DNA of 64,000 nucleotides from a virus: positions 32,001-96,000 of IMG/VR virus record IMGVR_UViG_3300045988_160394. One strand, 5' to 3'. The notes under the pieces were generated by a model. That model made no database searches. It was not told the origin of the DNA and saw only the letters and a program-made list of their open reading frames with translations. Positions 27,527-53,528 of this stretch are shown piece by piece (position 1 is the first letter of the stretch; every line of letters begins with the position of its first letter). Both the position numbers and the translations under genes were made by a program.

Positions 27527-28258
27527 ATGGATAAGTTTCAGATTAAGATATTAAACCCAGAAGAAGTAAAGACATTATTTAAACGTTGAGGGACGTTCGC
27601 ATGTAAATGTTATGACACTCCTGCTAAATATGCAGAAAGAGTTGGTAAATCATGCTTACAATCAGGACACTTTTCAGGATCAAGAAGTATATATATAGAA
27701 ATAGATGTTAGTAATGTACCTAGAGCTCTTGTAGATCAAATAATAAGAAGAGAACAAGGATGCGTTAAAAACGTTGAATCTGGTAGATATGTAGATTTCT
27801 CAGATTTTGATTATTATACTTCACCATTAATAGCTAATGATCCAATAGCTAAAGAGATATATGATGAACACATGAAAGCTACTAGAGAAGTTTATTCTTT
27901 ATTAGTTAAAAGATTAAATGAAAAAGGGATAACTGGTGAAAGAGCCTTTGAAGCAGCTAGAGGAGTTGCTCCTATGAACTATAGAACAGGTATGGTTCTA
28001 GGATTAACATTAGAAGCTTTAATAGGCTTATGTCATGAAAGATTATGTAGTAGAACTCAAGAACATTCTAGACATTTAATCAAGATGATAAGAGATGAGG
28101 TTCTAAAGCTTATACCTGAGTTAGAGCCATATTTAGTAGTGAAATGTGATTATCTACAATGGTGTCCAGAAGGAAGTAAATGTTGTGGTAGAAAACCAAC
28201 TAGAAAAGAATTCTTAGAATTTATTGATTCTAATAAAGTTAAAGGGAGTGTTAAGTAA
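27527..28258 (+). CDS. thyX: flavin-dependent thymidylate synthase, in-frame TGA at 27587
   Basis: ATG 27527 behind aggagg; RREQGCVKNVESGRY resembles ThyX RHRxxSxxxxSxRY; in frame with track ORF 27872..28258. Confidence 0.75.
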
Positions 28259-30888
28259 TGGCAAAGAATATAGTATTTAATTCAGATGCAAGAGAAAAGA
28301 TAAGACAAGGTGTCAATGTATTAGGAGATGCTGTTAGAGCAACTATGGGACCTAAAGGTAGAAATGCTATCTTAGAAAGAACACCTGGTTCTCCATTAAT
28401 AACTAACGATGGAGTTACTATAGCTAAAGAAATAGAATTAATAGACAATATAGAAAATATGGGAGCTCAAATAGTAAAAGAAGCAGCTATTAAGACTAAT
28501 GATGAGGCAGGAGATGGGCCACAACCTTTATATTCTAAAATATTAACACCTAATGGTTGGACTACTATGGGTGAAATAAAAAAAGGTGATGTTATATGTG
28601 GTACAAATAATACTCATCAAACAGTATTAGAAGTTTATCCTAAAGGGAAAAAAGAATTGGTTATAATTACATTCTCTAATGGCAAACAAGTTCATTGCTG
28701 TCAAGATCATTTATGGACTATAAATACAAGCTATGGAAAAAGAAAAACCATGACAACAAGAGAAATGATAAACAAAGGCGTATACAAACTTAATAGCCAA
28801 GGTGATAAAAGATATAATTTCTATACACCTTCTAACACAGTAGAGTTTCAAGAAAAAGAATTACCGATACATCCATACCTTTTAGGTGCTCTATTAGGAG
28901 ATGGCTCATTAACTGGGACAGGGAATATAGAATTAAGCTTAGGATATAATAAAGAGCACATAATAGAAAAAATATATCCGATATTACCTGACAATATACA
29001 AATATCAATACAGGATTGTTTAGACAAGAATTGTTATAGAGTCAAATTTTCAAAAATAGATAAAACTAATCCTATTTCTATGGAAAGTTTACTTAATGAA
29101 TTAAATCTATTAGGAACTAATAGTAAAAATAAATTTATACCTGAAATTTATTTATATAATTCAGTTGAAAATAGAACACAATTGTTAAATGGTTTAATAG
29201 ATACAGATGGATATAACAATAATAGAGGATTGTTTGAATTTTCTACTGTTAGCGATAAACTTAATGAATCCTTCACAGAATTAGTTAATAGCTTAGGAAT
29301 TCAAACATCATATACTTTACACAAAAGAGATAATGACTTATTATCTTATTCTTTCAATCCTATTCATAGACATACTCAATTAAAAGGTTATAAATATGGA
29401 ATAAAAATAGTAGATATTGAAGTTGTTAATAAACTAGAAGAAATGAAATGTATAAAAGTATCAAATCAAGATAATTTATATATAACAGATGGATATATAG
29501 TAACACACAACACTACTACAGCTACAGTTTTAGCACAAGCAATCATAAATGAAGGTTATAATGCTCTTTCTACAACTGAAGATGTTTCAGAAGAAGAAAA
29601 GAATCAATCTATATACAAAGGTGCCAATCCTGTTTTATTAAAGAAAGGTATAGAAATAGCTACTAAAATAGCAATAGATGAATTAAAAGCTATAGCTAAG
29701 CCTATAGAAACAGATGAAGAAATAAAACAAATAGCAACTATATCTTCTGCTAGTGATGATATAGGAGAATTAATATCTCAAGCTATTAAAAGAGTAGGTA
29801 AAGACGGTATAATTACTACTACTGAATCACATACTATAGAAACTACTTTAGAAGTTAAAGAAGGTTTTGAATTTGACAGAGGTTTTTATTCACCTTACTT
29901 TGCTGATGATCAAGAAAAAATAGAATCTGTTTTTTATAATCCATTAATACTTGTAAGTGATCAAAAGATGAGAACTCAACAAGAAATAGTACCTTTATTA
30001 GAACAAGTGTTAAAAGTTCAAAGACCTATAGTGTTTATAGTTGATGAAATAGAACAAATCGTATTCTCTTCTTTATTAAGAAATAAAATGAATGGGAATA
30101 TGGATGTAGCAGTAATAAAAGCACCTGGATTTGGGGCAAAAAGAAAAGAGCTATTACAAGATATAGCTATTTTAACAGGAGCAACTTTTATATCTGAAGA
30201 ATACGCTTTAACTATGTCAGAAGCTAGAATAAACTTATTAGGTTCATGCGAGTCTATAAAGATAACTAAAAATAATACTATTATATTTAATGGTTCTGGA
30301 GATAAAGAAGAAATAAATAAAAGAGCAGAACACATTAAGAATAGTATTAATGCTGATAATATATCAGAATACGATAAAGAAAAACTAGAAGAAAGATTAG
30401 CTAAAATAACAGGTGGTATAGCTACTATAAAAATAGGAGCTGCTACAGAGCCTGAATTAAAAGAGAAAAAGTTAAGAATAGAAGATGCTATTAATGCCAC
30501 TAAAGCAGCTATAGAAGAAGGAATAGTTGCAGGTGGTGGAACAGCTTTATTTAATCTTTCACCAGTAATATTAGAAAAGACTAAAAACTTAGTAGGAGAT
30601 GTATATCAAGGAGCATTATGTGTAGCATTAGCTGTTAATTCTCCAATAATACAAATAGCTATGAATGCAGGTGTAAATGCTACTAAGGTTATGGAAAATG
30701 TTTTAAAGACAGCTAAAGAAAAAAGCAATCCTAATATAGGATATGATGCTTATAATGATGCTTATGTTGATATGTTAGAAGTAGGAATAATAGATCCTGT
30801 AAAAGTTACTAGAAATGCATTACAAAATGCAGCTTCAGTAGCTGCTATACTGTTAACAACAGATGTAACTATAAGCAACTTTCAATAA
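28258..30888 (+). CDS. groL: GroEL chaperonin interrupted by an intein (545-aa extein)
   Basis: N-terminal AKNIVFN...GPKGRN...AGDG | intein | TTTATVLAQAI...; C-terminal GroEL equatorial domain. Confidence 0.9.
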   Translation: MAKNIVFNSDAREKIRQGVNVLGDAVRATMGPKGRNAILERTPGSPLITNDGVTIAKEIELIDNIENMGAQIVKEAAIKTNDEAGDGPQPLYSKILTPNGWTTMGEIKKGDVICGTNNTHQTVLEVYPKGKKELVIITFSNGKQVHCCQDHLWTINTSYGKRKTMTTREMINKGVYKLNSQGDKRYNFYTPSNTVEFQEKELPIHPYLLGALLGDGSLTGTGNIELSLGYNKEHIIEKIYPILPDNIQISIQDCLDKNCYRVKFSKIDKTNPISMESLLNELNLLGTNSKNKFIPEIYLYNSVENRTQLLNGLIDTDGYNNNRGLFEFSTVSDKLNESFTELVNSLGIQTSYTLHKRDNDLLSYSFNPIHRHTQLKGYKYGIKIVDIEVVNKLEEMKCIKVSNQDNLYITDGYIVTHNTTTATVLAQAIINEGYNALSTTEDVSEEEKNQSIYKGANPVLLKKGIEIATKIAIDELKAIAKPIETDEEIKQIATISSASDDIGELISQAIKRVGKDGIITTTESHTIETTLEVKEGFEFDRGFYSPYFADDQEKIESVFYNPLILVSDQKMRTQQEIVPLLEQVLKVQRPIVFIVDEIEQIVFSSLLRNKMNGNMDVAVIKAPGFGAKRKELLQDIAILTGATFISEEYALTMSEARINLLGSCESIKITKNNTIIFNGSGDKEEINKRAEHIKNSINADNISEYDKEKLEERLAKITGGIATIKIGAATEPELKEKKLRIEDAINATKAAIEEGIVAGGGTALFNLSPVILEKTKNLVGDVYQGALCVALAVNSPIIQIAMNAGVNATKVMENVLKTAKEKSNPNIGYDAYNDAYVDMLEVGIIDPVKVTRNALQNAASVAAILLTTDVTISNFQ
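28519..29511 (+). mobile_element. 331-aa LAGLIDADG intein in GroEL GDG/TTT ATP-binding motif, class-3-like (WCT)
   Basis: Starts Pro (PQPLYSKILTPNGW), block B CQDHLW, LLGALLGDGS and LLNGLIDTDGY, block F KCIKV, ends IVTHN followed by Thr. Confidence 0.85.
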
Positions 30889-31861: not shown

Positions 31862-32125
31862 ATGGTTGTATTTGTTATAATAGAAGAAACATTGTTTGAA
31901 AATGAAAATCCATTAAATGAAATTGTATATATAACTTCAAGTAAAGAAGATTGTTTAAGTACTCTTAATAGACAATATCGTTTAGCAATAGCTGATATGT
32001 GCAATAAAGCAGAAGGCGAACTTGACTTAAATAATATGACTTTTATAGTGAAAAGTATTGAAAATAATGATATTATTCGTGGCAGAATAGAACAGCATTA
32101 TGTTTATATGCAAGAGGAGGAATAA
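31862..32125 (+). CDS. small protein, paralogue of next gene
   Basis: Shared C-terminal RGRIEQHYV / TGRIERHVV. Confidence 0.5.
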   Translation: MVVFVIIEETLFENENPLNEIVYITSSKEDCLSTLNRQYRLAIADMCNKAEGELDLNNMTFIVKSIENNDIIRGRIEQHYVYMQEEE

Positions 32126-34044: not shown

Positions 34045-34073
34045 TTTACAAACATAAATAAATTTGATATATT
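34045..34073 (+). promoter_or_regulatory. sigma-70-like promoter candidate for the tRNA/ribozyme cluster
   Basis: TTTACA - 17 nt - TATATT, about 55 nt upstream of first tRNA; such matches are frequent in AT-rich DNA. Confidence 0.3.
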
Positions 34074-34128: not shown

Positions 34129-34247
34129 GCGGGTTTCACGTAGTTTGGTTAGCGTTCTGGTCTTCAAAACCAGTGACAGGCACCATGTTCGACATGCTTT
34201 AATGTTTTGGTTATAAGTCTGCGGGGGTTCGAATCCCTCAACCCGTG
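34129..34247 (+). tRNA. tRNA with anticodon UCA (UGA-decoding, Trp-like anticodon arm), 49-nt insertion in variable region, no encoded CCA
   Basis: Acceptor gcgggtt/aacccgt, D arm acgt/gcgt, anticodon arm ctggt-cttcaaa-accag (anticodon 34164..34166), T arm ggggg-ttcgaat-ccctc. Confidence 0.6.
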
Positions 34248-34317
34248 GTCTCTCATTTAGTAAGCCTCCACGTTGGCGAGAGACGGAAACAAAATTACTA
34301 TTTTGGCTAATTACTAA
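34248..34317 (+). ncRNA. HDV-like (theta-type) self-cleaving ribozyme abutting the tRNA 3' end
   Basis: P1 gtctctc/gagagac, P2 ttagtaa/ttactaa, P3 gcc/ggc with L3 tccacgtt, GG for P1.1, short P4 caaaa/ttttg, J4/2 gCtaa. Confidence 0.8.
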
Positions 34318-34339: not shown

Positions 34340-34966
34340 ATGGAAGGTTATATTTATAAAATAACTAATAGCTTAAATAATAAATGTTATATAGGCAAAA
34401 CATATAAATCTATCCAACAAAGATGGAAAGAACATTTAAAATCCTGTAAAAAAGGAGAATGTTCTAATAGACCTTTATACAAGGCTATTAATAAATACGG
34501 TGTTGGCAACTTTTCTATAGAAGAATTAGGAAAGTTTGAAGAAGGTATTTTAGAAGAAAAAGAAATATATTATATAGATAAATATGATTCATATAATAAT
34601 GGCTATAACGCTACATTAGGTGGAGATGGGAAAAGATATTTCCAATATACCGATAAAGAAGTTATAGATGAATACCTTAAAACTAAAAACTTAAATATAA
34701 CATCAAAATACTTCAATTGTGATGTAGATACTATAAAAAGAATATTAGAATCTAATAGTATCGAAACATTAACAGCTAAAGAATCTATAAAAAATACTTA
34801 TGGAAGAACAGTATTAAAATATTCTTTAGATGAAGAGTTAATAGCTAAATATGAAACAGTTTCTGACGCAGCTAAAGAATTTGATAAAGGCTCTCCTGGT
34901 TCAATATCAAGATGTTGCAGAGGATTAAGAAAGACATATAAAGGTTTCATATGGAGATATTCTTAG
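34340..34966 (+). CDS. GIY-YIG homing endonuclease (I-TevI-like)
   Basis: GYIYKITN...CYIGKT...RWKEH...YNATLGGDG. Confidence 0.85.
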   Translation: MEGYIYKITNSLNNKCYIGKTYKSIQQRWKEHLKSCKKGECSNRPLYKAINKYGVGNFSIEELGKFEEGILEEKEIYYIDKYDSYNNGYNATLGGDGKRYFQYTDKEVIDEYLKTKNLNITSKYFNCDVDTIKRILESNSIETLTAKESIKNTYGRTVLKYSLDEELIAKYETVSDAAKEFDKGSPGSISRCCRGLRKTYKGFIWRYS

Positions 34967-35044: not shown

Positions 35045-35122
35045 GTCTTTCAACTAACAAGCCTCCTCGTGGCGAAAGATGGAAACAGATAGAAGTAAAA
35101 TAATTATCTGGCTAATTGTTAG
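35045..35122 (+). ncRNA. second HDV-like ribozyme copy, just upstream of tRNA-Gln
   Basis: P1 gtctttc/gaaagat (G.U at cleavage site), P2 ctaacaa/ttgttag, P3 gcc/ggc, L3 tcctcgt, P4 agata/tatct, J4/2 ggCtaa; stems co-vary with copy 1. Confidence 0.75.
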
Positions 35123-35129
35123 AAAATAT

Positions 35130-35204
35130 TGCGGTATAGCCAAGTGGAAAGGCAGCTGACTTTGACTCAGCTATGCGTAGGTTCAATTCCTACTACCGCT
35201 GCCA
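35130..35204 (+). tRNA. tRNA-Gln (UUG), CCA encoded
   Basis: Cloverleaf folded by hand; anticodon loop cttTTGac; U1.U72 mismatch. Confidence 0.8.
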
Positions 35205-35208
35205 ATAA

Positions 35209-35285
35209 TGTGGTGTAGCTCAATCGGTTAGAGCATACGTCTGATAAGCGTAAGGTTACAAGTTCAATTCTTGTCACCACAACCA
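35209..35285 (+). tRNA. tRNA-Ile (GAU), CCA encoded
   Basis: Acceptor tgtggtg/caccaca, loop ctGATaa. Confidence 0.9.
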
Positions 35286-35341
35286 CAACTAGATTAAAAT
35301 ATTCTAGTAAAAATATATGGTGTATATATTTGCGATGTAAA

Positions 35342-35434
35342 TAAGATAAAGCTCAGCCAGGTTAGAGCACATGGGTTATTATGAGGCATTGTAATAATAC
35401 TTTGGAGTCGTGGGTTCAAATCCCACTATCTTAT
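35342..35434 (+). tRNA. tRNA-like element with canonical acceptor, D and T arms but 18 extra nt in the anticodon region
   Basis: Acceptor taagata/tatctta, D gctc/gagc, T gtggg/cccac; anticodon not assignable. Confidence 0.4.
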
Positions 35435-35443
35435 TTATATTAA

Positions 35444-35520
35444 TGCGGTATAGCTTAGTTGGTAAAAGCCCTCGATTCATAACCGAGAGATCACAAGTTC
35501 GAATCTTGTTACCGCAACCA
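35444..35520 (+). tRNA. tRNA (CAU): elongator Met or Ile2, CCA encoded
   Basis: Acceptor tgcggta/taccgca, loop ttCATaa; no initiator features. Confidence 0.85.
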
Positions 35521-35530
35521 TTATATTAAA

Positions 35531-35625
35531 GGTTGATTCTCCAGCCTGGAGGTGAGAAGTTGATAAAACACTCACTAAACGCCATAAAAGGTAATCACGA
35601 ATGTGAGCGTGTGATTAACTATTTT
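35531..35625 (+). ncRNA. orphan third copy of the tracrRNA-like scaffold, between two tRNAs
   Basis: ggttgattctccagcct..gtgag..ctcactaaacgcc..gcgtgt collinear with 19721 and 20085 copies. Confidence 0.45.
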
Positions 35626-35663
35626 ATATAGTAGAAGAGTCCCTTATCTTCCTCTATTGTTAT

Positions 35664-35738
35664 GGGAATATAGTACAAAGGTTAGTACAATCGGCTGTTA
35701 ACCGATAGATCCTGGTTCGATTCCATGTATTCCCGCCA
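35664..35738 (+). tRNA. tRNA-Asn (GUU), CCA encoded
   Basis: Acceptor gggaata/tattccc, loop ctGTTaa; one T-stem mismatch. Confidence 0.8.
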
Positions 35739-38196: not shown

Positions 38197-38877
38197 ATGA
38201 TTAAAGAAGAATATGGTTATTATGAAGATTTAAAAGAATACAGTAATGAGGCAATAGTAAAAAGAATACAGGAAACAGATGATCCTAGACTATGAGATGA
38301 ATTAGATAAAAGAACTAAAAGAGTATTTAGCTCAGTAATGAGAGATGAAGTTCATCCTTATTATAAAGAAAATATGAGAGATGATATCTTAAGCGTATTA
38401 AGAATAGGGTGAGTAAAAGCTGTTAAGACATATGATGAGTCAAAAGCTACAGCTGAATTTGTTCCTTATTGTAGTTTTATTATGTGACAAAATTATAGAA
38501 TGTTTGCTAGAAGAATTACTAAAGAAAAAGTAGGTAATTCAGTTAGAGACGAACCATTATCATGTGTATCAGCAGATGGTTATTCAGATAATGAAAAGAT
38601 GTCACAAGGTTGTATAGACATAATCATGAAACATGATTGTGAAGAATATAAAGCTATAGAATCAAAAGACTTTGTTAATAGCTTATTAGAAAAACTTAAA
38701 GAACATGATGAAGTTCAATATTTGATTATTAAGAAACATTGTATTGAAGGAATAACTCAAAAAGAGTTAGGACAAACATTACAAATGTCGCAATCATATA
38801 TATCAAGAAATATAAAAAAGGGAATGGCATTCTTAAAACAAGAGTTAATACTTGAAGGACAGAAATTAAAGATGTAA
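38197..38877 (+). CDS. sigma-70 family RNA polymerase sigma factor, three in-frame TGA (38293, 38410, 38485)
   Basis: Region 2-like DDILSVLRIG-W-VKAVKTYD, region 4 HTH GITQKELGQTLQMSQSYISRNIKKG. Confidence 0.8.
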
Positions 38878-45816: not shown

Positions 45817-46050
45817 ATGGCAGAAAGAATTATACAAAAAGAATTAGCAGAAGCTATGGCTCCAAGATATAAATCTTATGGTTTATATGTTGTTAAAGAT
45901 AGAGCTTTACCTAGCTTATATTCTGGTTGTAAACCCGTTCTTCAAAGATCATTGTACTCAATGTTTGAAATGGGATTAAAAAGTACAGCTAAGATAAAAA
46001 AATCTGCTAGAGTTGTTGGAGATGTAATAGGTAAATATCATCCACACGGT
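45817..46050 (+). CDS. gyrA: type IIA topoisomerase subunit A, exon 1
   Basis: Ends ...VIGKYHPHG; conserved continuation D.SVYDTIVR resumes at 47313. Confidence 0.8.
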
Positions 46051-47312
46051 TGTTGAAAAATAGTATATATTTTGCAATAATTTATTTTTCATTCATATAG
46101 TAAATATATAAACAGAATTTATTATAAGAATGGAGAAATAATTTTATGAAAAAAACAGAATTTAATGAAACACAAATAAAAGATATAGTTGAAAGATATA
46201 AAAATGGAGAAGCTATTATGAACATTAGAAAAGATTATAATGTTAGTCATAGTACTATTAATAGAGTATTAAAAGAAAATAACGTTGCAATTAGAGGTAA
46301 TAGGAAACATTTTTATAACGAAGATATTTTAAAAAAAATAAATACAGCTGAAAAAGCTTATTGAATAGGATTTATTACAGCAGATGGTTATATTAATGAA
46401 GATAGAAATTTTATGAGAATAAAGCTTCAAGAAAAAGATAAAGATCATTTATATAAATTTATGAAATTTATCGGAGGAGATGAAGGTATGATAAAATATG
46501 AATTTCATAATATAACTGGTAATAAACAATGATATATAGAAGTTAGTGGTAAGACTTTTATTAAGTCGTTAGTAGAATTAGGAATAAGACAGAAAAAAAG
46601 TTCTAATGAGCAATGGTGTAATAAGATTCCAGAAAAATATATAAAAGATTATATAAGAGGAATAATAGATGGAGATGGGCATATATCTTTGGAAAATAAA
46701 AGATTTGACATATGTAATTCAGAATCGTTATTAATACAATTGCAAAATTTCCTAATAAAAGAATATAATACTTCAAAAACAAAAATATATGATCATTGTA
46801 ATACAAAAAGATTGTTTGTAACAGTTAATGCTACAGATATATTGTTTGATTTATATTATAAAAAGTGTGTATCATTAGATAGAAAATATAAAACTGTTAA
46901 AATATTAAAGCAATTAATAGAACTATAATTGCCGTGTATAAATAGGGTAAAATCGGTTCCGACAGCTTAAACAAAAAGATGGATGGTTTAAGTATGGTGG
47001 TATATAAAGAAGAGAGGCTTAATTGCTAATACCGAGGTAAAGATAAGTTTAAAACCTTATGCTCACCGTAACGCATAGACATTGAAACTTTATTAAATTA
47101 AAGAATATAATATGTCCAAGAGTGCCCTACACAGAATTGAAAAATATTCTCCTAGGTCAAGTAATAGCTTGATGTGAAAATGTATGCTAGGCTGGACTAG
47201 AATTAACTAGTCGATGAGGTTAGTTATTAACCAAATGAGTGAAAACTCCAGAGTCAGGTGTAGGAATAGACCTACTATTAATAGATAAAAAGCCCTGAGA
47301 TAATAACATTCG
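46051..47312 (+). mobile_element. group I-type intron in gyrA carrying a LAGLIDADG gene
   Basis: Exon 1 ends in U, insert ends in G, joining restores HPHG|DVSVYDTIVR in frame; about 385 nt ORF-free structured 3' part. Confidence 0.65.
46146..46928 (+). CDS. LAGLIDADG homing endonuclease with N-terminal HTH; two in-frame TGA (46362, 46530)
   Basis: AY-W-IGFITADGY and IRGIIDGDGH motifs. Confidence 0.8.
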
Positions 47313-49550
47313 GATGTATCTGTATATGATACTATAGTTAGAGCTTCTCAAAAGTGGAATATGAGATATCCAATCGTAGATATGCCATCAAATAATGGTT
47401 CTATAGATGGAGATGGAGCAGCTGCTATGAGATATACAGAATGTAGACTAACAGCTTATGGCGAAAAGTTATTAGAAGGTATAAATAAAGAAACAGTTGA
47501 TTTTAAACCTAACTATGATAACTCAGAAACAGAACCTGTTGAACTACCATGTATGCTACCTAACTTATTAGCTAATGGAGTAGAAGGTATAGCAGTTGGT
47601 ATGGCTGCGAATATACCTCCTCATAATTTAACAGAGCTATTAACAGCTGCTAGAAGAATAATAAGTGATGCTAAAGAAGAAAAAGAAACTTCTTTAGAAG
47701 ATTTAATGACTATAATAAAAGGACCAGATTTCCCTGGCGGTGGTATTATAGTTAACAAGAAAAATCTTAAAACAGCTTTTGCTACTGGTAAAGGTAGAAT
47801 AACTTTAAGAGGTAAAACTGATATAGTAGAAGATAAAAAAGGACATAAAACAATAAATATAACTGAAGTCCCTTATCAAGTTAAACCTATTGAATTAGTT
47901 AATAAAATATATACTCTTGCTAGAGATGGGAAAATAGAAGGTATTAAAGAAGTTGAAGATGAATCAGATAAGAACGGTATGTGTTTATCTGTAAAACTTA
48001 AAAAATCAGCTAATCCAACTTTAGTATTAAATAATTTATACAAGTTAACAGATTTACAAAAGAATATAAACTATAATATGAATGCATTAATAGGTGATAC
48101 TCCTGTTGATGTAACATTATTAGATTATTTAAATGAGTATTTATCTAACTCATTAAATATCTTATTAAGAAGAACTAACTTTGATCGTGATAAAGATATG
48201 AAAAGAATATCAAACTTAGAGGTTATATTCTTATATCTTGAAAACAAAGAAGATATAGTTGCAATAATTGCTTCATCAGATAATCCAGAAGAAGAATTAA
48301 AAGAAAAATATGAATTAGCTGATGAACAAATTAGCTTTTTATTAAATACTAGATTAGGTTCTTTAAAGAAAGCTAGTATTTCTAAATATCAAGAAGAATA
48401 TGACCAGTTAAATGAAAATGTAACTGAATATACAAAGATATTAGAAGATGAAGGATATGCTTTAGATGTTCTTTCTAAAGAATTATCTGAATTACAAGAA
48501 CAATTTGGAGATGAAAGAAGAACTCAAATTGAATTAGACGTTAATGGAGATATTGCAGAGGAAGATTTAATTCCAGATGAACCATTAGTTGTTACAATTA
48601 CATCTGATGGCTTAATAAAAGCTGTTGATGAAAAAGAATATAGTACTCAAAAGAGAGGTGGAAAAGGAACTAAAGCAGCATCTACTAAAGATGATGAAAT
48701 AGTAACTGATCTATTCTCTATTAATAGCAAAGATGATATCTTATTTATGACTGATAAAGGAAGATGTCATAAGTTAAAAGGATATTCTATACCTAAAGTA
48801 GGTAAGAATGCTAAAGGAAGACATATTAATAACTTTATTAAGTTAGAAGAAGGCGAAAATATAGTATCTGTTATGCCCGTAAAAATTAAAGATGAAGCAG
48901 AACATTCTATACTATTTGTAACAGCTTTAGGACAAATTAAGAGATTATCTATAAGCGAATTAGGTTCTAGATATACAGCTATTAAAGTTCTAAAGATAAA
49001 AGATGGAGATGGTCTTCAAACTTGTTTAAAAGTTAATGAAGGTCAAGATGTTATGCTTTGTACAGCAAAAGGTCAATCAATAAGATTTACTGTATCAACA
49101 GAAACTAAAAAGCCAATTAGACCTCAAGGAAGAACTGCTTCTGGAGTTATAGGTATAAAAGTAGCTGAAGATGACTATGTTATCGGAGCAACTATCATAG
49201 ATGATGAATCTAATATCTTAACTTTAACTAGCAATGGTTTAAGTAAGCAAACAAAAGGTGCTGCTTGGGAAGCTAAGCAAAGAGGTGGAAAAGGAATACT
49301 TTGTCATAAAATAACAGAGAAAACAGGAGACTTAGTTTCAGTATTATCTGTTAAAGAAGATGATGAATTATTTGTTGGAACTGAATCTGGTAAAATAATC
49401 AGATTAAAAGCTAATTCTATAGCAACTTCAGGAAGATCTGCTATAGGAAGTAAAGCTATTAAGTTAGATGAAGGTGATTATGCATTTACAGCATCTTTAG
49501 CTCCAGCTAACAATGAAGAAGTTGAATTAGAAACTACAGAAGAGGCGTAA
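47313..49550 (+). CDS. gyrA: type IIA topoisomerase subunit A, exon 2
   Basis: DVSVYDTIVRASQ..., GDGAAAMRYTE (catalytic Tyr), C-terminal beta-pinwheel repeats. Confidence 0.85.
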   Translation, partial: DVSVYDTIVRASQKWNMRYPIVDMPSNNGSIDGDGAAAMRYTECRLTAYGEKLLEGINKETVDFKPNYDNSETEPVELPCMLPNLLANGVEGIAVGMAANIPPHNLTELLTAARRIISDAKEEKETSLEDLMTIIKGPDFPGGGIIVNKKNLKTAFATGKGRITLRGKTDIVEDKKGHKTINITEVPYQVKPIELVNKIYTLARDGKIEGIKEVEDESDKNGMCLSVKLKKSANPTLVLNNLYKLTDLQKNINYNMNALIGDTPVDVTLLDYLNEYLSNSLNILLRRTNFDRDKDMKRISNLEVIFLYLENKEDIVAIIASSDNPEEELKEKYELADEQISFLLNTRLGSLKKASISKYQEEYDQLNENVTEYTKILEDEGYALDVLSKELSELQEQFGDERRTQIELDVNGDIAEEDLIPDEPLVVTITSDGLIKAVDEKEYSTQKRGGKGTKAASTKDDEIVTDLFSINSKDDILFMTDKGRCHKLKGYSIPKVGKNAKGRHINNFIKLEEGENIVSVMPVKIKDEAEHSILFVTALGQIKRLSISELGSRYTAIKVLKIKDGDGLQTCLKVNEGQDVMLCTAKGQSIRFTVSTETKKPIRPQGRTASGVIGIKVAEDDYVIGATIIDDESNILTLTSNGLSKQTKGAAWEAKQRGGKGILCHKITEKTGDLVSVLSVKEDDELFVGTESGKIIRLKANSIATSGRSAIGSKAIKLDEGDYAFTASLAPANNEEVELETTEEA

Positions 49551-51128: not shown

Positions 51129-51773
51129 ATGACAATGAGTTTAGCAGAGAAAAGAAAGAAAATGTCCCAAATGATGGGGAAAATAAATGATAAGGTAGGT
51201 AAACAAGTAATAGGATTTGCATCAGATCCTGTTATGAAAGATAGATTAACTATCCAATGGATACCTATGCCATCATTAAGAGTTAATGAAGTAACTGGTG
51301 GTGGAATACCTAAAGGTAAGATAAGTGTTGTAGCTGGTGATTCAGATTCAGGTAAAACATCTTTAATGTTAGAAACTATAGGGTTAAACATGAAGAATAA
51401 TCCTGACTTTATGGCTTTATGGTTAGAATCAGAAGAATCTCTAGAGTTAGAAGCTTTAGAAAATGTTTTTGGTATTGATTTAGATAGATTCGTAGTAATA
51501 TATCTAGATAGAGATGGAGCAGCAGAAGTAGCTTTAGATAGATTAGAAGCTGCTTTAGGTATGGGTGTATTCGATATGTGTGTAATAAACTCATTAAAAT
51601 GTTTAACACCATCTACTGAATTTGAAAAAGCTATGGGTGAAGCTACTATAGGTATACAAGCTAGAATGAATGGTAAACTTATGAGAAAGATGACTACGTT
51701 AATAGCAGAACACGGTTGTGCTTTTGTATTAATAAACCATCTTACTACTGAGATAGGTAAAATGCATGGAGAT
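51129..51773 (+). CDS. recA: RecA-family recombinase, exon 1
   Basis: Walker A GDSDSGKTS, LINHLTTEIGKMHGD then interruption. Confidence 0.75.
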
Positions 51774-52928
51774 TTTGCGTTAGCTGGATAATTAGTGATA
51801 TCTCATATAATAAGATATGAGGTGATAAAATTGAGATATAAATGGACTCAAAAAAAAGTAGATTTATTAAAAAAATATTATGAAGAAGGTTTAAGTAATA
51901 AAGAAATAGCTAATAAAATGGGTACTACTGTTCATAGTGTTTCTGGGAAAGCTAAAGAACTTAAATTGAGAAAAAATTTATCAAAAGTATATAATTTATT
52001 AACTGATAAAGAAAAAGAATATATAAAAGCCAATAGTTTAAAAAAATCTATCACTCAGATAGCAAAAGATCTGAATAGAGATAAAGAAACAATAAATAAG
52101 TATATTAAACAAAATAATTTAGTTACAAAATTTAATTTATTTGATCATTTAATGACTAATGAGGAATTTGTTAAAGATTTTAAAAATCCTTCATTATCAC
52201 ATGCTTTTTTAGGTAGAAAATATAATGTTACTGATTGAGTTATAAGAAAATGAAGGTTAGCAAACATAGGTAATTACAAACAAATGACAGATACTTATTT
52301 ATGTAAGTCAACTTCTGAATTAGAGGTTGAAAAAATATTAGAAGAATTAGATTTGGCTTATATTTATGAAAAGAAAATTCTTGATTGAAAAGTAGATTAT
52401 TACTTAGGCTTTAAAACTATAATAGAAGTTCAAGGTGATTACTGGCATAATCTTGATAAGGTAAAAGAAAAAGATAAACGTAAATTTAAAGAACTTCGAG
52501 ATAATGGATTTACTATTATAGAAATATGAGAAAGTGAATTATCAAATATAGATTTAATAAAAACTAAGATATTATCCAATTTTAGGGTCTCCCTTAAGGA
52601 GTAATTCTTAAGTAAAAAACTTGGTGAACTGTTTGCTTAACAGGTGTGCAATTAACGTTAAAGTAGCTATAGTAAATGATAGTTAATAATTGTGCTAACA
52701 GGGAACATTGCTAACGGCAATCCTGTGCCAAGACTTATTATCATGATAAGTAAGGTCAAGAGACTATCGAAAACAAATAATAAATATAACTCCTATAAGG
52801 AGAATAAGGTATTGTAGGATACACGAAGTGAGTAGAGTACGGTAGAGATAAGCACTACTGGAAGTGCCAAGTCCCTTATTAGTATTAAGGGTAAAGATAT
52901 AGTCCGACATCATAAAATAATTGTGATG
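51774..52928 (+). mobile_element. group I intron in recA carrying a Vsr-like endonuclease gene
   Basis: Exon ends U, intron ends G; 3' core contains aagatatagtccgac, closely resembling the conserved P7/P3 strand of group I introns; splice restores MHGD|LPLVLAGGRAIRY. Confidence 0.7.
51831..52604 (+). CDS. HTH plus Vsr/PD-(D/E)xK-like homing endonuclease; four in-frame TGA (52236, 52251, 52386, 52527)
   Basis: TTG 51831 behind gaggtg (alternative GTG 51795); C-terminal IIEVQGDYWHN...FTIIEI-W-ESEL. Confidence 0.7.
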
Positions 52929-53528
52929 TTGCCATTAGTTTTAGCTGGAGGTAGAGCTATAAGATATTCTTCTATGCTTACTTTAGATATAAGAAAAAGA
53001 TCTATTCAAGAAGCAGATCCTGTATCTAGAGATGAAGGTATGAAGATAGGAGTTACTATAAATAAAAATCACTGTAGACAAGATAGAATGCCTTATTTAA
53101 AAACAGAATATTTCGTTGTTTATGGACAAGGTACAGAACGTTCTATAGAAATAATAGAATTAGCTGAAAAGTGTGGTATTCTAACTAAAAAAGGTTCTTG
53201 GTATAGAGAATATTCAGGAGAAACTGATAGTAAAGGAAATCCTATAGAAAGAATTTTATCAGATGGAACTAAAGCTGCTTGGAATGGTATGAAAAATACT
53301 AGAGCATATATCTTAAGTCATCCAGAATATTTTGATTATCTAGTAAATAAAGTTGAAAACTTTGGTCAAATAGATGTCGAAACTCTATCAGAAGAAGAAA
53401 TTCAAAGATTAGAAGAAGAACATAAGTTAGAAGAAGCTTCAGCTAGTGAACAAGATATAACTCTTGATGATATAATACAAGATCCTGATACAACTGAAAC
53501 AAAAAAATCTACTAAGAAAAAGAAATAA
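52929..53528 (+). CDS. recA: RecA-family recombinase, exon 2
   Basis: LPLVLAGGRAIRYSSMLTLDIRKR... matches RecA L2 / following region. Confidence 0.75.
   Translation: MPLVLAGGRAIRYSSMLTLDIRKRSIQEADPVSRDEGMKIGVTINKNHCRQDRMPYLKTEYFVVYGQGTERSIEIIELAEKCGILTKKGSWYREYSGETDSKGNPIERILSDGTKAAWNGMKNTRAYILSHPEYFDYLVNKVENFGQIDVETLSEEEIQRLEEEHKLEEASASEQDITLDDIIQDPDTTETKKSTKKKK

Follow-up and report, generated by a model that had tools for sequence, protein, structure and literature searches.

The 64,000-nucleotide (nt) stretch analysed here (positions 32,001 to 96,000 of the IMG/VR virus record IMGVR_UViG_3300045988_160394, hereafter the window) comes from an uncultivated jumbo gut phage of ~263 kb and carries, at 34129-34247, an unusual gene for a transfer RNA (tRNA) with the anticodon UCA. 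We consider this gene, named tRNA(UCA) below, to be probably a working opal-suppressor tRNA-Trp(UCA) encoded by the phage. Its most distinctive part is a variable region of 49 nt which, judging from its conservation and covariation, is a selected and folded three-helix arm that leaves the tRNA core where the arms of class II tRNAs do. Comparison of related phages further indicates that TGA encodes tryptophan in several genes of the window and that the long tRNA co-occurs with in-frame TGA. The tRNA and its parts, the promoter-like site, the downstream tRNAs, the endonuclease cassette, both ribozyme copies, the sigma-factor gene and the RNA-ligase fusion gene described below all lie on the plus strand.

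A Trp-like tRNA(UCA) with an extended variable region

The 119-nt gene folds into a 7/5 cloverleaf, and all arms drawn for it in an earlier sequence-only reading were found in place. The 7-base-pair (bp) acceptor stem is formed by GCGGGTT and AACCCGT (34129-34135 / 34240-34246) with a G1-U72 wobble pair, and the 4-bp D stem by ACGT and GCGT (34138-34141 / 34152-34155), which enclose a 10-nt D loop. The anticodon arm CTGGT-CTTCAAA-ACCAG (34157-34173) is followed, after the variable region, by the T arm GGGGG-TTCGAAT-CCCTC with its 5-bp stem (34223-34239) and by the discriminator G (G73, 34247). The anticodon TCA (34164-34166), which reads UGA, stands in a normal 7-nt loop, CTTCAAA, both in the sequence and in the Rfam alignment. 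Anticodon and discriminator are invariant in all five lineages that carry the long tRNA. The gene has the core positions U8, A14, U33 and G15/C48, GG in its D loop and TTCGAAT as its T loop. Conservation of the anticodon loop, U33, the T loop, G18G19 and the G15-C48 pair follows the pattern of tRNAs used in decoding.

The sequence-only reading had proposed a gene-finder run as a check, and on this the two programs part. ARAGORN, run on the window, made no call for 34129-34247 and called four downstream tRNAs, whereas the Rfam tRNA covariance model (RF00005) accepts the cloverleaf and matches 34129-34247 end to end over model positions 1-71, with 47.9 bits (E=3.8e-07) against a gathering score of 29. 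The RF00005 alignment assigns the extra bases to the variable region (34174-34222), where the 49-nt insertion had been placed, and homologues of tRNA(UCA) in relatives score 42.6-56.4 bits. The four downstream tRNAs are canonical (Gln-TTG, Ile-GAT, Met-CAT and Asn-GTT; 35130-35738), were found by both ARAGORN and RF00005, and have CCA encoded after each. In contrast, the bases right after the discriminator of tRNA(UCA) are GTC, in keeping with the earlier remark that its CCA is not encoded. Approximately 55 nt upstream of the gene lies a sigma-70-type promoter-like site, TTTACA-17 nt-TATATT (34045-34073), a putative promoter on the strength of a consensus match (10 of 12 positions, and an extended -10 with TG ahead of the -10 box); identical hexamers are also readable in front of the tRNA(UCA) copy in L061 (L-numbered labels denote related or other contigs and loci compared with the window).

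Compared with bacterial tRNA-Trp, the discriminator G73, a TrpRS identity element, agrees, and the remaining anticodon arm is Trp-like. Two features deviate: the anticodon is UCA instead of CCA, as in opal-suppressor and Mycoplasma-type tRNA-Trp, and the variable region has 49 nt instead of the 4-5 nt of a class I loop. In their acceptor, anticodon arm and 3' half, the long tRNAs are similar to tRNA-Trp(CCA) genes found in related phages; TGCCCCTG-CCA, for instance, occurs in the long tRNA of L067 and also in L070 and L078, within their Trp(CCA) genes. The resemblance of tRNA(UCA) to tRNA-Trp genes of GenBank phages is weak.

Conservation of the long tRNA among related phages

The identical 119-nt tRNA was found in eight other contigs of the same phage (L050-54, L056, L059 and L060), including two in which the neighbouring protein is only 91-95% identical. 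Diverged long tRNA(UCA) genes are present in L061 and L077 (119 nt each), L072 (118 nt) and L067/L068 (117 nt), and five lineages in all carry the long tRNA, represented by the window, L061, L067, L072 and L077. Because the gene is identical in eight contigs and has diverged copies in four further lineages, the cloverleaf is more than a product of chance.

These homologues were reached only via synteny with the sigma-factor gene described below. Exact and gapped DNA pattern scans of IMG/VR, JGI metagenomes and GTDB genomes yielded no new diverged homologue and returned selC genes, coding matches, chance adjacent-tRNA pairs or the same phage (L056). A BLAST search of GenBank phages gave no close relatives of the window and generic tRNA similarity only. 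Homologues of the adjacent protein of 128 amino acids (aa) were uninformative, since relatives that are 91-95% identical in this protein have an identical tRNA.

Structure of the 49-nt variable arm

In both the centroid and the minimum free energy (MFE) folds, the variable region (34174-34222) forms an irregular arm of three helices. The outer stem (34177-34181/34217-34221) is separated by a 3' bulge (34212-34216) from a middle 4-bp stem (34182-34185/34208-34211), which leads through a 5' internal loop (34186-34190) to the inner stem (34191-34195/34202-34206) and a hexaloop (34196-34201). The region is exactly 49 nt long in 5/5 lineages. The arms of the window and L067, folded separately, share one layout: the outer stem is followed by a 3' bulge of 4-5 nt that includes AUA, a middle stem of 4 bp, an internal loop of 5 nt on the 5' side, the inner stem and the terminal loop. 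Their sequence identity is 12/49, which is chance level. In every sequence type, canonical pairing is seen for all 14 architecture-matched arm pairs, 10 of which differ on both sides between the window and L067; the outer stem of L061 has further changes, from C-G to U-A and from G.U to G-C. The independently obtained dot-bracket strings of the window and L067 agree at 41 of 49 positions, a level that was not reached once when the L067 arm was dinucleotide-shuffled 2000 times.

Covariation is also evident for the tRNA as a whole. In a plain MAFFT alignment of the five tRNAs, covering the cloverleaf and the arm, 98.3% of cells are paired and 15 pairs are changed on both sides, versus 3.7 +/- 1.6 in shuffles (0/500); when the 3' partners are slid by 1-3 columns, pairing falls to 34-45%. 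Compensatory changes occur in every helix, and five such pairs lie in the arm on this alignment. The arm pairs given above were taken from the independent MFE folds, because a covariance model built from the MAFFT alignment misaligned the L067 arm.

These results change the earlier picture of the insert in part. The 49 nt are there, and they are a length-conserved, covarying three-helix arm, not an arbitrary insertion with a mimic of a T arm. The mini-hairpin catg-ttcga-catg, which had been described as T-arm-like, is present in the window and missing from L067, and was therefore ruled out as the fold of the arm. The claim that the insert exceeds any class II variable arm stands (49 nt versus ~10-24 nt), and to our knowledge the arm is about twice as long as any in a natural tRNA. 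The arm sequence occurs once in the window, and no other Rfam family, intron families included, matched the 49-nt insert in a permissive scan (E<=1).

TGA codons at tryptophan positions

The clearest client of the suppressor is a sigma-70-like factor gene (38197-38877; Sigma70_r4 match below the Pfam cutoff) with three in-frame TGA codons at 38293, 38410 and 38485. ThyX and a RecA-like ATPase contain one each, and two endonuclease genes contain more: two in a LAGLIDADG/helix-turn-helix (HTH) open reading frame (ORF) in a gap of gyrA (46146-46928) and four in an HTH + Vsr-like ORF within a split recA (51795-52604). None of these genes continues through TAA or TAG.

With the sigma-factor TGAs masked as X, alignment with 18 homologues (46-98% identity) placed two of them on Trp columns invariant in 18/18, and the third aligned with Trp in the two closest homologues. 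These 18 sequences replaced PDB alignments, in which the homologues were too distant and the residue at TGA was ambiguous. Since some database proteins may have been called in code 4, the DNA codons were checked as well. At the two invariant Trp sites of the sigma factor, L067, L069, L070, L078 and L064 use the codon TGG, and the window, L077, L072, L061 and L073/75 use TGA; thus TGA and TGG alternate at fixed Trp sites. The earlier description of the tRNA as UGA-decoding and Trp-like is borne out by this pattern.

In total, 12 deep in-frame TGA codons stand against 132 TGG codons in the window, so that TGA makes up roughly 8% of phage Trp codons. Only 5 of 75 ORFs in the window end in TGA, most of these reading through. 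The dominance of TGG (132 vs ~12 TGA) argues against a code-4 host without proving the point. Deep in-frame TGA occurs at 0.5-2.6 per 10 kb in all five long-tRNA lineages, and the relatives L070, L078 and L064/66 have a 73-76-nt tRNA-Trp(CCA), no long tRNA and zero deep in-frame TGA in the fetched region. These comparisons indicate that UGA is read as Trp and that the long tRNA accompanies this recoding.

The tRNA's 3' terminus, the endonuclease cassette and a candidate HDV-like ribozyme

A GIY-YIG / NUMOD1 homing-endonuclease gene (34340-34966; Pfam PF01541, E=3.2e-09) follows the tRNA. It is part of a cassette of ~735 bp, composed of a candidate ribozyme and the endonuclease (34248 to ~34982), which lies between the discriminator and TACATAC in the window and is absent from some relatives. 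Five contigs without the GIY-YIG gene (L051, L052, L054, L056 and L060) depart from the window exactly at 34248 and read ...AACCCGTG-CCA-TACATACATTT, that is, the tRNA followed by CCA-TACATAC. Because these relatives encode CCA, its absence from the window is secondary.

The 5' part of the cassette (34248-34317) is a candidate for a hepatitis delta virus (HDV)-like, theta-type ribozyme, identified by an RF02682 match (31.4 bits, E=1e-3) together with a hand fold. In this fold, P1 (GUCUCUC / GAGAGAC, 7 bp, 34248-54 / 34278-84), P3 (GCC / GGC, 3 bp, 34264-66 / 34275-77) and the 8-nt L3 (34267-74) were found both by hand and by a descriptor scan. P2 (UUAGUAA / UUACUAA, 7 bp, 34257-63 / 34311-17) comes from hand reading, as the descriptor scan found another P2 segment. 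P1.1 (GG with CC, 2 bp, 34285-86 with 34268-69), the P4 hairpin (5 bp, 34291-95 / 34300-04) and J4/2 (C-UAA from 34307, with the candidate catalytic C) were likewise read by hand. The hand fold thus contains the nested double pseudoknot of P1, P1.1, P2, P3 and P4 with a C at the start of J4/2. A second copy (35045-35123; RF02682 36 bits, E=9.8e-05) lies 6 nt upstream of the tRNA-Gln, with P1 GTCTTTC/GAAAGAT, P2 CTAACAA/TTGTTAG and P3 GCC/GGC. This copy and that of L077 retain P1 and P2 through compensating changes relative to copy 1.

HDV-like ribozymes cut 5' of their first nucleotide, and the predicted cut therefore falls between 34247 and 34248, at the tRNA 3' end: G1 is 34248 and the discriminator is 34247. 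In L077, the ribozyme begins one base later (GTG-C|GTCTTTC; G73 plus one C) and there is no endonuclease gene. The idea that the endonuclease insertion merely deleted CCA was refined on this basis, with the cleavage site of the cassette ribozyme replacing the encoded end. From these sequences, the missing CCA should be explained by an HDV-like ribozyme that arrived with the GIY-YIG cassette and is predicted to cleave at the tRNA end.

The window also encodes a kinase / metallophosphoesterase / RNA-ligase fusion of 730 aa (57093-59285; Pnkp/Rnl-like), with the Pfam domains AAA_33 (4e-20), Metallophos (1.9e-17) and RNA_lig_T4_1 (2.8e-40, T4-Rnl1-type ligase). This enzyme could remove the 2',3'-cyclic phosphate before CCA addition, a link to the tRNA suggested by its domains; it might alternatively repair tRNAs cut by host anticodon nucleases. 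No PolyA_pol-family gene was found among the annotated ORFs of the window. A protein of this family (CCA-adding type, with a faint HD domain) follows the sigma gene in distant, non-recoded relatives (L064:10711-12060 and L066:10711-12060).

Proposed pathway and possible role of the arm

In the pathway we propose, the tRNA would be transcribed from its own promoter-like site at 34045-34073, its 5' end would be processed by RNase P, and its 3' end would be released by the HDV-like (theta-type) ribozyme starting after G73. The cyclic-phosphate end would then be healed, possibly by the Pnkp/Rnl-like enzyme of the phage, and CCA would be added by a CCA-adding enzyme. The tRNA has several features that count as TrpRS identity elements, namely G73, G5-C68, weak pairing of 1-72 and an anticodon arm of the Trp type, and through these it may be charged by the TrpRS of the host. 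The charged tRNA would read in-frame UGA in the sigma factor, ThyX, the RecA-like ATPase and the intron-borne endonucleases.

Our best guess is that the mature molecule retains the arm, which would serve, at the hinge between the D arm, the anticodon arm and the variable region, as a module for docking or tuning or as an anti-determinant. Such a role is plausible because the arm leaves the core at this hinge, where the mutations A9C and G24A alter UGA reading by tRNA-Trp (PMC13092985). The module could dock a phage or host factor, or block enzymes (GlnRS mischarging, nucleases, T-box sensing), or it could tune the bending of the tRNA at the hinge during competition with release factor 2. The fuller proposal, in which a translating tRNA keeps the arm as the largest natural variable arm and as a module that gates the UGA-to-Trp code switch of the phage, is a tentative one to which we give less than even confidence. 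If it is true, the molecule would in effect represent a new structural class of elongator tRNA.

Several observations weigh against a Trp-inserting suppressor with a functional arm. We know of no TrpRS substrate with a long variable arm. The covariation comes from about three independent sequence types, the arms of the window, L077 and L072 being nearly identical, and the two outermost arm pairs of L067 were set by eye. Both ribozyme matches (31.4 and 36 bits) are below the RF02682 gathering score of 44, a model built on the F. prausnitzii type. Recoding is light, with stop-to-stop ORF coverage rising from 0.85 (code 11) to 0.89 (code 4), below the 5-10% density criterion for recoded phages (PMC10879173), and standard pipelines would therefore probably call the phage code 11. 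The TGA at 16028 looks like a real stop, as it overlaps the next start codon in ATGA and readthrough would add 63 codons across the next gene; TGA may thus serve as both stop and sense codon, depending on the suppressor level. The window covers 64 kb of ~263 kb, so another UGA decoder could lie elsewhere. L073/75 use TGA with no long tRNA found in the available stretch, which is uninformative because the contig ends before the expected place of the gene. The L067 lineage has a second tRNA(UCA) of normal length (L067:2869-2941, labelled SeC by ARAGORN), which has a poor anticodon stem and discriminator U, and the sigma gene of this lineage uses TGG.

Alternative explanations

The 49 nt might be an intervening sequence that is cut at the two bulges, with the halves ligated into an ordinary ~74-nt tRNA-Trp(UCA), and we regard this as unlikely. 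Removal of the whole arm would leave a normal 4-nt variable loop (UGA...C), the opposite-strand bulges around a conserved 4-bp helix in the window and L067 are reminiscent of a bulge-helix-bulge, the phage RNA ligase with its end-healing domains (the Pnkp/Rnl fusion) could rejoin the halves, and the genome is rich in introns, intein and homing endonucleases. However, the fixed 49-nt length and the covariation of the whole arm are more in line with a domain that is kept than with an intron, the insert has no match in any known ribozyme or intron family, and we are not aware of any bacterium or phage in which a tRNA is spliced in its variable region. The bulges measure 4-5 nt and lie 3' of the central-helix strands, a polarity opposite to that of the archaeal 3-4-3 motif; an archaeal bulge-helix-bulge intron was accordingly rejected on bulge size (4-5 vs 3 nt) and polarity, although the 4-bp helix is conserved. 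A group I intron was rejected as well: such introns have a catalytic core of >200 nt and usually sit in the anticodon loop, whereas the insert has 49 nt, lies in the variable region and matches no Rfam intron at E<=1. A different fate of UGA, its reading as Ser or Sec by a serine-accepting or Sec-pathway opal suppressor, is quite improbable. The combination of a long variable arm and G73, which speaks against a Trp identity, is the signature of SerRS: the two form its main identity set, and SerRS ignores the anticodon (PMC7609411, PMC5389517). The UCA anticodon and long arm are likewise shared with tRNA-Sec. Against this, the columns in which the in-frame TGAs lie are invariant for Trp and have TGG in place of TGA in some relatives, the tRNA is like the tRNA-Trp(CCA) of related phages in its acceptor, its anticodon arm and its 3' half, and the arm is irregular and far longer than in SerRS substrates. 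A class II SerRS-charged tRNA was thus rejected, its arm and G73 being present but TGA matching Trp, not Ser. A tRNA-Sec (selC) was rejected because the phage tRNA folds as 7/5, its D stem having 4 bp and its D loop 10 nt, in place of the 13-bp acceptor/T domain (8/5 or 9/4) and the 6-bp D stem with a 4-nt loop that define tRNA-Sec.

Two further readings deny the gene a role in decoding. A tRNA-like RNA outside translation, acting as a regulator, as a decoy for host enzymes or defence, or as a processing scaffold for the ribozyme and the array, is very improbable. The same arrays hold drum and skipping-rope RNAs and tRNAs with oversized anticodon loops, and a giant arm may hamper use by the ribosome; yet the features of a decoding tRNA (anticodon loop, U33, T loop, G18G19 and G15-C48) are conserved, the presence of the gene accompanies in-frame TGA, and engineered tRNAs with large inserts in the variable loop (V-loop) still translate. 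That the gene is dead or decaying, broken by an insertion linked to a mobile element, can hardly be credited. It is rejected by ARAGORN, scores 47.9 bits compared with 63-74 for the neighbouring tRNAs, adjoins a homing-endonuclease cassette and has no encoded CCA. Nevertheless, all core tRNA positions are intact, the sequence is identical in relatives whose neighbouring protein is 91-95% identical, compensatory changes occur in every helix including the arm, cassette-free variants encode CCA, and the phage requires a UGA decoder.

Genome context

The window has 27% GC, with essentially all genes on the plus strand and 85% of its length covered by ORFs of >=100 codons in the standard code. Its genes include phage-type ones for replication and nucleotide metabolism, and encode FolD, ThyX, ClpP and a ClpX-like ATPase, SSB, GyrB, GyrA, RecA-like proteins, an NAD-dependent DNA ligase, Rad52, thymidylate kinase and an intein-split GroEL. 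The gyrA gene (45817-49550) is split: exon 1 ends with ...KYHPHG (~46050) and the gene resumes at 47361, leaving a gap of ~1.3 kb which contains the LAGLIDADG/HTH endonuclease ORF mentioned above. A search for group I/II introns in this gap gave no Rfam match at E<=1. gyrA is likewise split in L061, L069 and L077 and intact in L067, L072 and L075. The recA gene (51129-53528) is also split, its N-terminal part lying at 51129-51791 and its C-terminal part at 52923-53528, and the ORF between them (51795-52604), with a GcrA/HTH region and a Vsr/DUF559-like tail, is probably another intron-borne homing endonuclease. The GroEL (Cpn60) gene (28258-30888) carries an intein with a LAGLIDADG/Hom_end domain, and its uninterrupted counterparts in L061 and L072 have 534-543 aa. 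At 18296-20310, an ORF of 446 aa is TnpB/Cas12f-like (OrfB_IS605 plus a Cas12f1-like TNB domain) and is adjoined by CRISPR-DR3-like repeats of 29-30 nt at 19889, 19955 and 20278 (RF01316, 42-43 bits), with a ~390-nt duplication nearby (19767-19860 and 20156-20250); these sequences might represent guide-RNA regions of TnpB or a phage CRISPR array of miniature size.

The tRNA array itself holds other unusual elements. An aberrant tRNA-like gene of 96 nt (35342-35437) has no normal anticodon loop; an 85-nt version in L053 (5817-5901) reaches a tRNA score of 43 bits, and that of the window is longer by 11 nt in the variable region. Aberrant tRNA-like genes also occur in the arrays of relatives (L067:2780-2865, L073:1492-1570 and L073:2297-2385), where 13-18-nt anticodon loops are seen. 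Drum RNA (RF02958) and skipping-rope RNA (RF02924), above their gathering scores, occur in or near the tRNA arrays of relatives (L051:5562-5689; L059:2632-2762; L072:6335-6463 and 15660-15776; L070:1275-1374). The content of the arrays varies between close relatives by gain or loss of Ser, Tyr and Pro tRNAs.

Comparison with known systems

Code switching of phages by suppressor tRNAs and theta ribozymes flanking tRNAs are already known. To these, the present case would add a natural tRNA that is ~120 nt long and in which structural selection clearly acts on the extra arm. It suggests that the variable region can hold a large domain, and offers a concrete RNA element for a possible role in code switching. 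Because ARAGORN misses this tRNA and the recoding is too light for density tests, such suppressors and partial recoding are probably under-counted. The tRNA may also serve as a natural scaffold for orthogonal or tagged suppressor tRNAs in synthetic biology. The homing-endonuclease cassette, with its own predicted tRNA-end-processing ribozyme, landed exactly at the discriminator/CCA junction and provides an example of a mobile element that fits into tRNA maturation without breaking the tRNA.

Gut phages with suppressor tRNAs for code 4 (TGA=Trp) have been described (Borges et al., bioRxiv 10.1101/2021.08.26.457843; Nat Microbiol 2022), and it was predicted that some suppressors are non-canonical and evade detection (bioRxiv 10.1101/2021.08.26.457843). 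The genes of intron endonucleases are TGA-rich in TGA-recoded Agate phages (bioRxiv 10.1101/2021.08.26.457843). The phage studied here is like these in its stop-matching anticodon, TGA at Trp positions, TGA-rich intron endonucleases and a presumed reliance on the host TrpRS; no TrpRS or RF1 was found among the annotated ORFs of the window. It differs in its light recoding (~12 deep TGA vs 132 TGG per 64 kb, and a 4-point rise in coverage), in having TGA in genes of early type (those of the sigma factor, ThyX and the RecA-like protein) instead of in lysis genes, and in the 49-nt structured arm, which is not described in that work.

Theta ribozymes have their cleavage site within +/-1 nt of phage tRNA 3' ends (Kienbeck et al. 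2024, PMC10879173); only 4.5% of theta-adjacent tRNAs encode CCA, about one in five are suppressors, and RNA-ligase or nucleotidyltransferase genes are enriched in the genomes concerned (PMC10879173). The window agrees with these systems in the position of G1 at the tRNA 3' end, the lack of an encoded CCA, a suppressor tRNA and an RNA-ligase-type gene, the label theta-type resting here on RF02682, the hand fold and our own descriptor instead of the authors' theta descriptor. That study dealt mostly with UAG suppressors and phages of Bacteroidota, whereas here a UGA/Trp suppressor is found in a low-GC jumbo phage, and the ribozyme forms the 5' part of a mobile GIY-YIG cassette, the sister genomes having CCA and a spacer.

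Like class II tRNAs, tRNA-Sec and allo-tRNAs, the phage tRNA has a paired extra arm between the anticodon and T arms, and like tRNA-Sec and some allo-tRNAs it has a UCA anticodon and G73. Natural class II arms (Ser, Leu and bacterial Tyr) are single hairpins of ~10-24 nt, in contrast to the 49 nt, three helices, bulge and internal loop seen here; the literature on non-canonical tRNAs describes class II arms as having "10 or more" nt. Unlike tRNA-Sec and allo-tRNAs, the phage tRNA has a 7/5 Trp-type body, not 8/5, 9/4, 8/4 or 9/3, and the residue is Trp, not Ser or Sec. The tRNA-Trp(UCA) of Mycoplasma and Spiroplasma and the opal-suppressor tRNA-Trp of E. coli share the Trp body, G73 and UCA and read UGA, and probably UGG by wobble. 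They are class I tRNAs of cellular genomes with variable loops of 4-5 nt, unlike the phage tRNA. For a 7/5 tRNA of Trp type that bears a variable arm of ~49 nt and three helices, no earlier description was found in recoding papers, the theta-ribozyme paper and reviews on non-canonical tRNAs.

Moderately enlarged arms were observed in unrelated IMG/VR phages, which have a 7/5 tRNA(UCA) with G73, CCA and variable arms of 20-28 nt (L013:2905-2999 and L022:534-625, and on the minus strand L016:5402-5493, L011:2954-3045 and L001:7263-7354). These loci are strongly TGA-recoded; in L013, for example, a change to code 4 lifts ORF coverage from 0.56 to 0.86. In L016, L011/L022 and L001, the hairpin loop of the arm, U(G/C)UCCA(U/A)AG, resembles the tRNA-Trp anticodon loop CUCCAAA and might act as a decoy CCA anticodon for TrpRS; a decoy U-CCA-A loop was looked for in the 49-nt arm of the window and is not present there. 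As unrelated recoded phages carry arms of 20-28 nt, enlarged arms are possibly a wider pattern of opal suppressors, of which the window would be the extreme.

The closest structural precedent is an engineered one. When the Spinach aptamer was placed in the V-loop of E. coli tRNA-Tyr, charging went down 2.7-fold and EF-Tu binding was normal (PMC5397188). The Spinach-tRNA, whose mass greatly exceeds that of any natural tRNA according to its authors, suppressed amber codons in vivo, with A-site accommodation 18-fold slower (PMC5397188). By analogy with this construct, a 49-nt arm can be compatible with translation. Both molecules hold a large structured RNA in the V-loop; the Spinach-tRNA is artificial, and the phage tRNA would be its natural counterpart.

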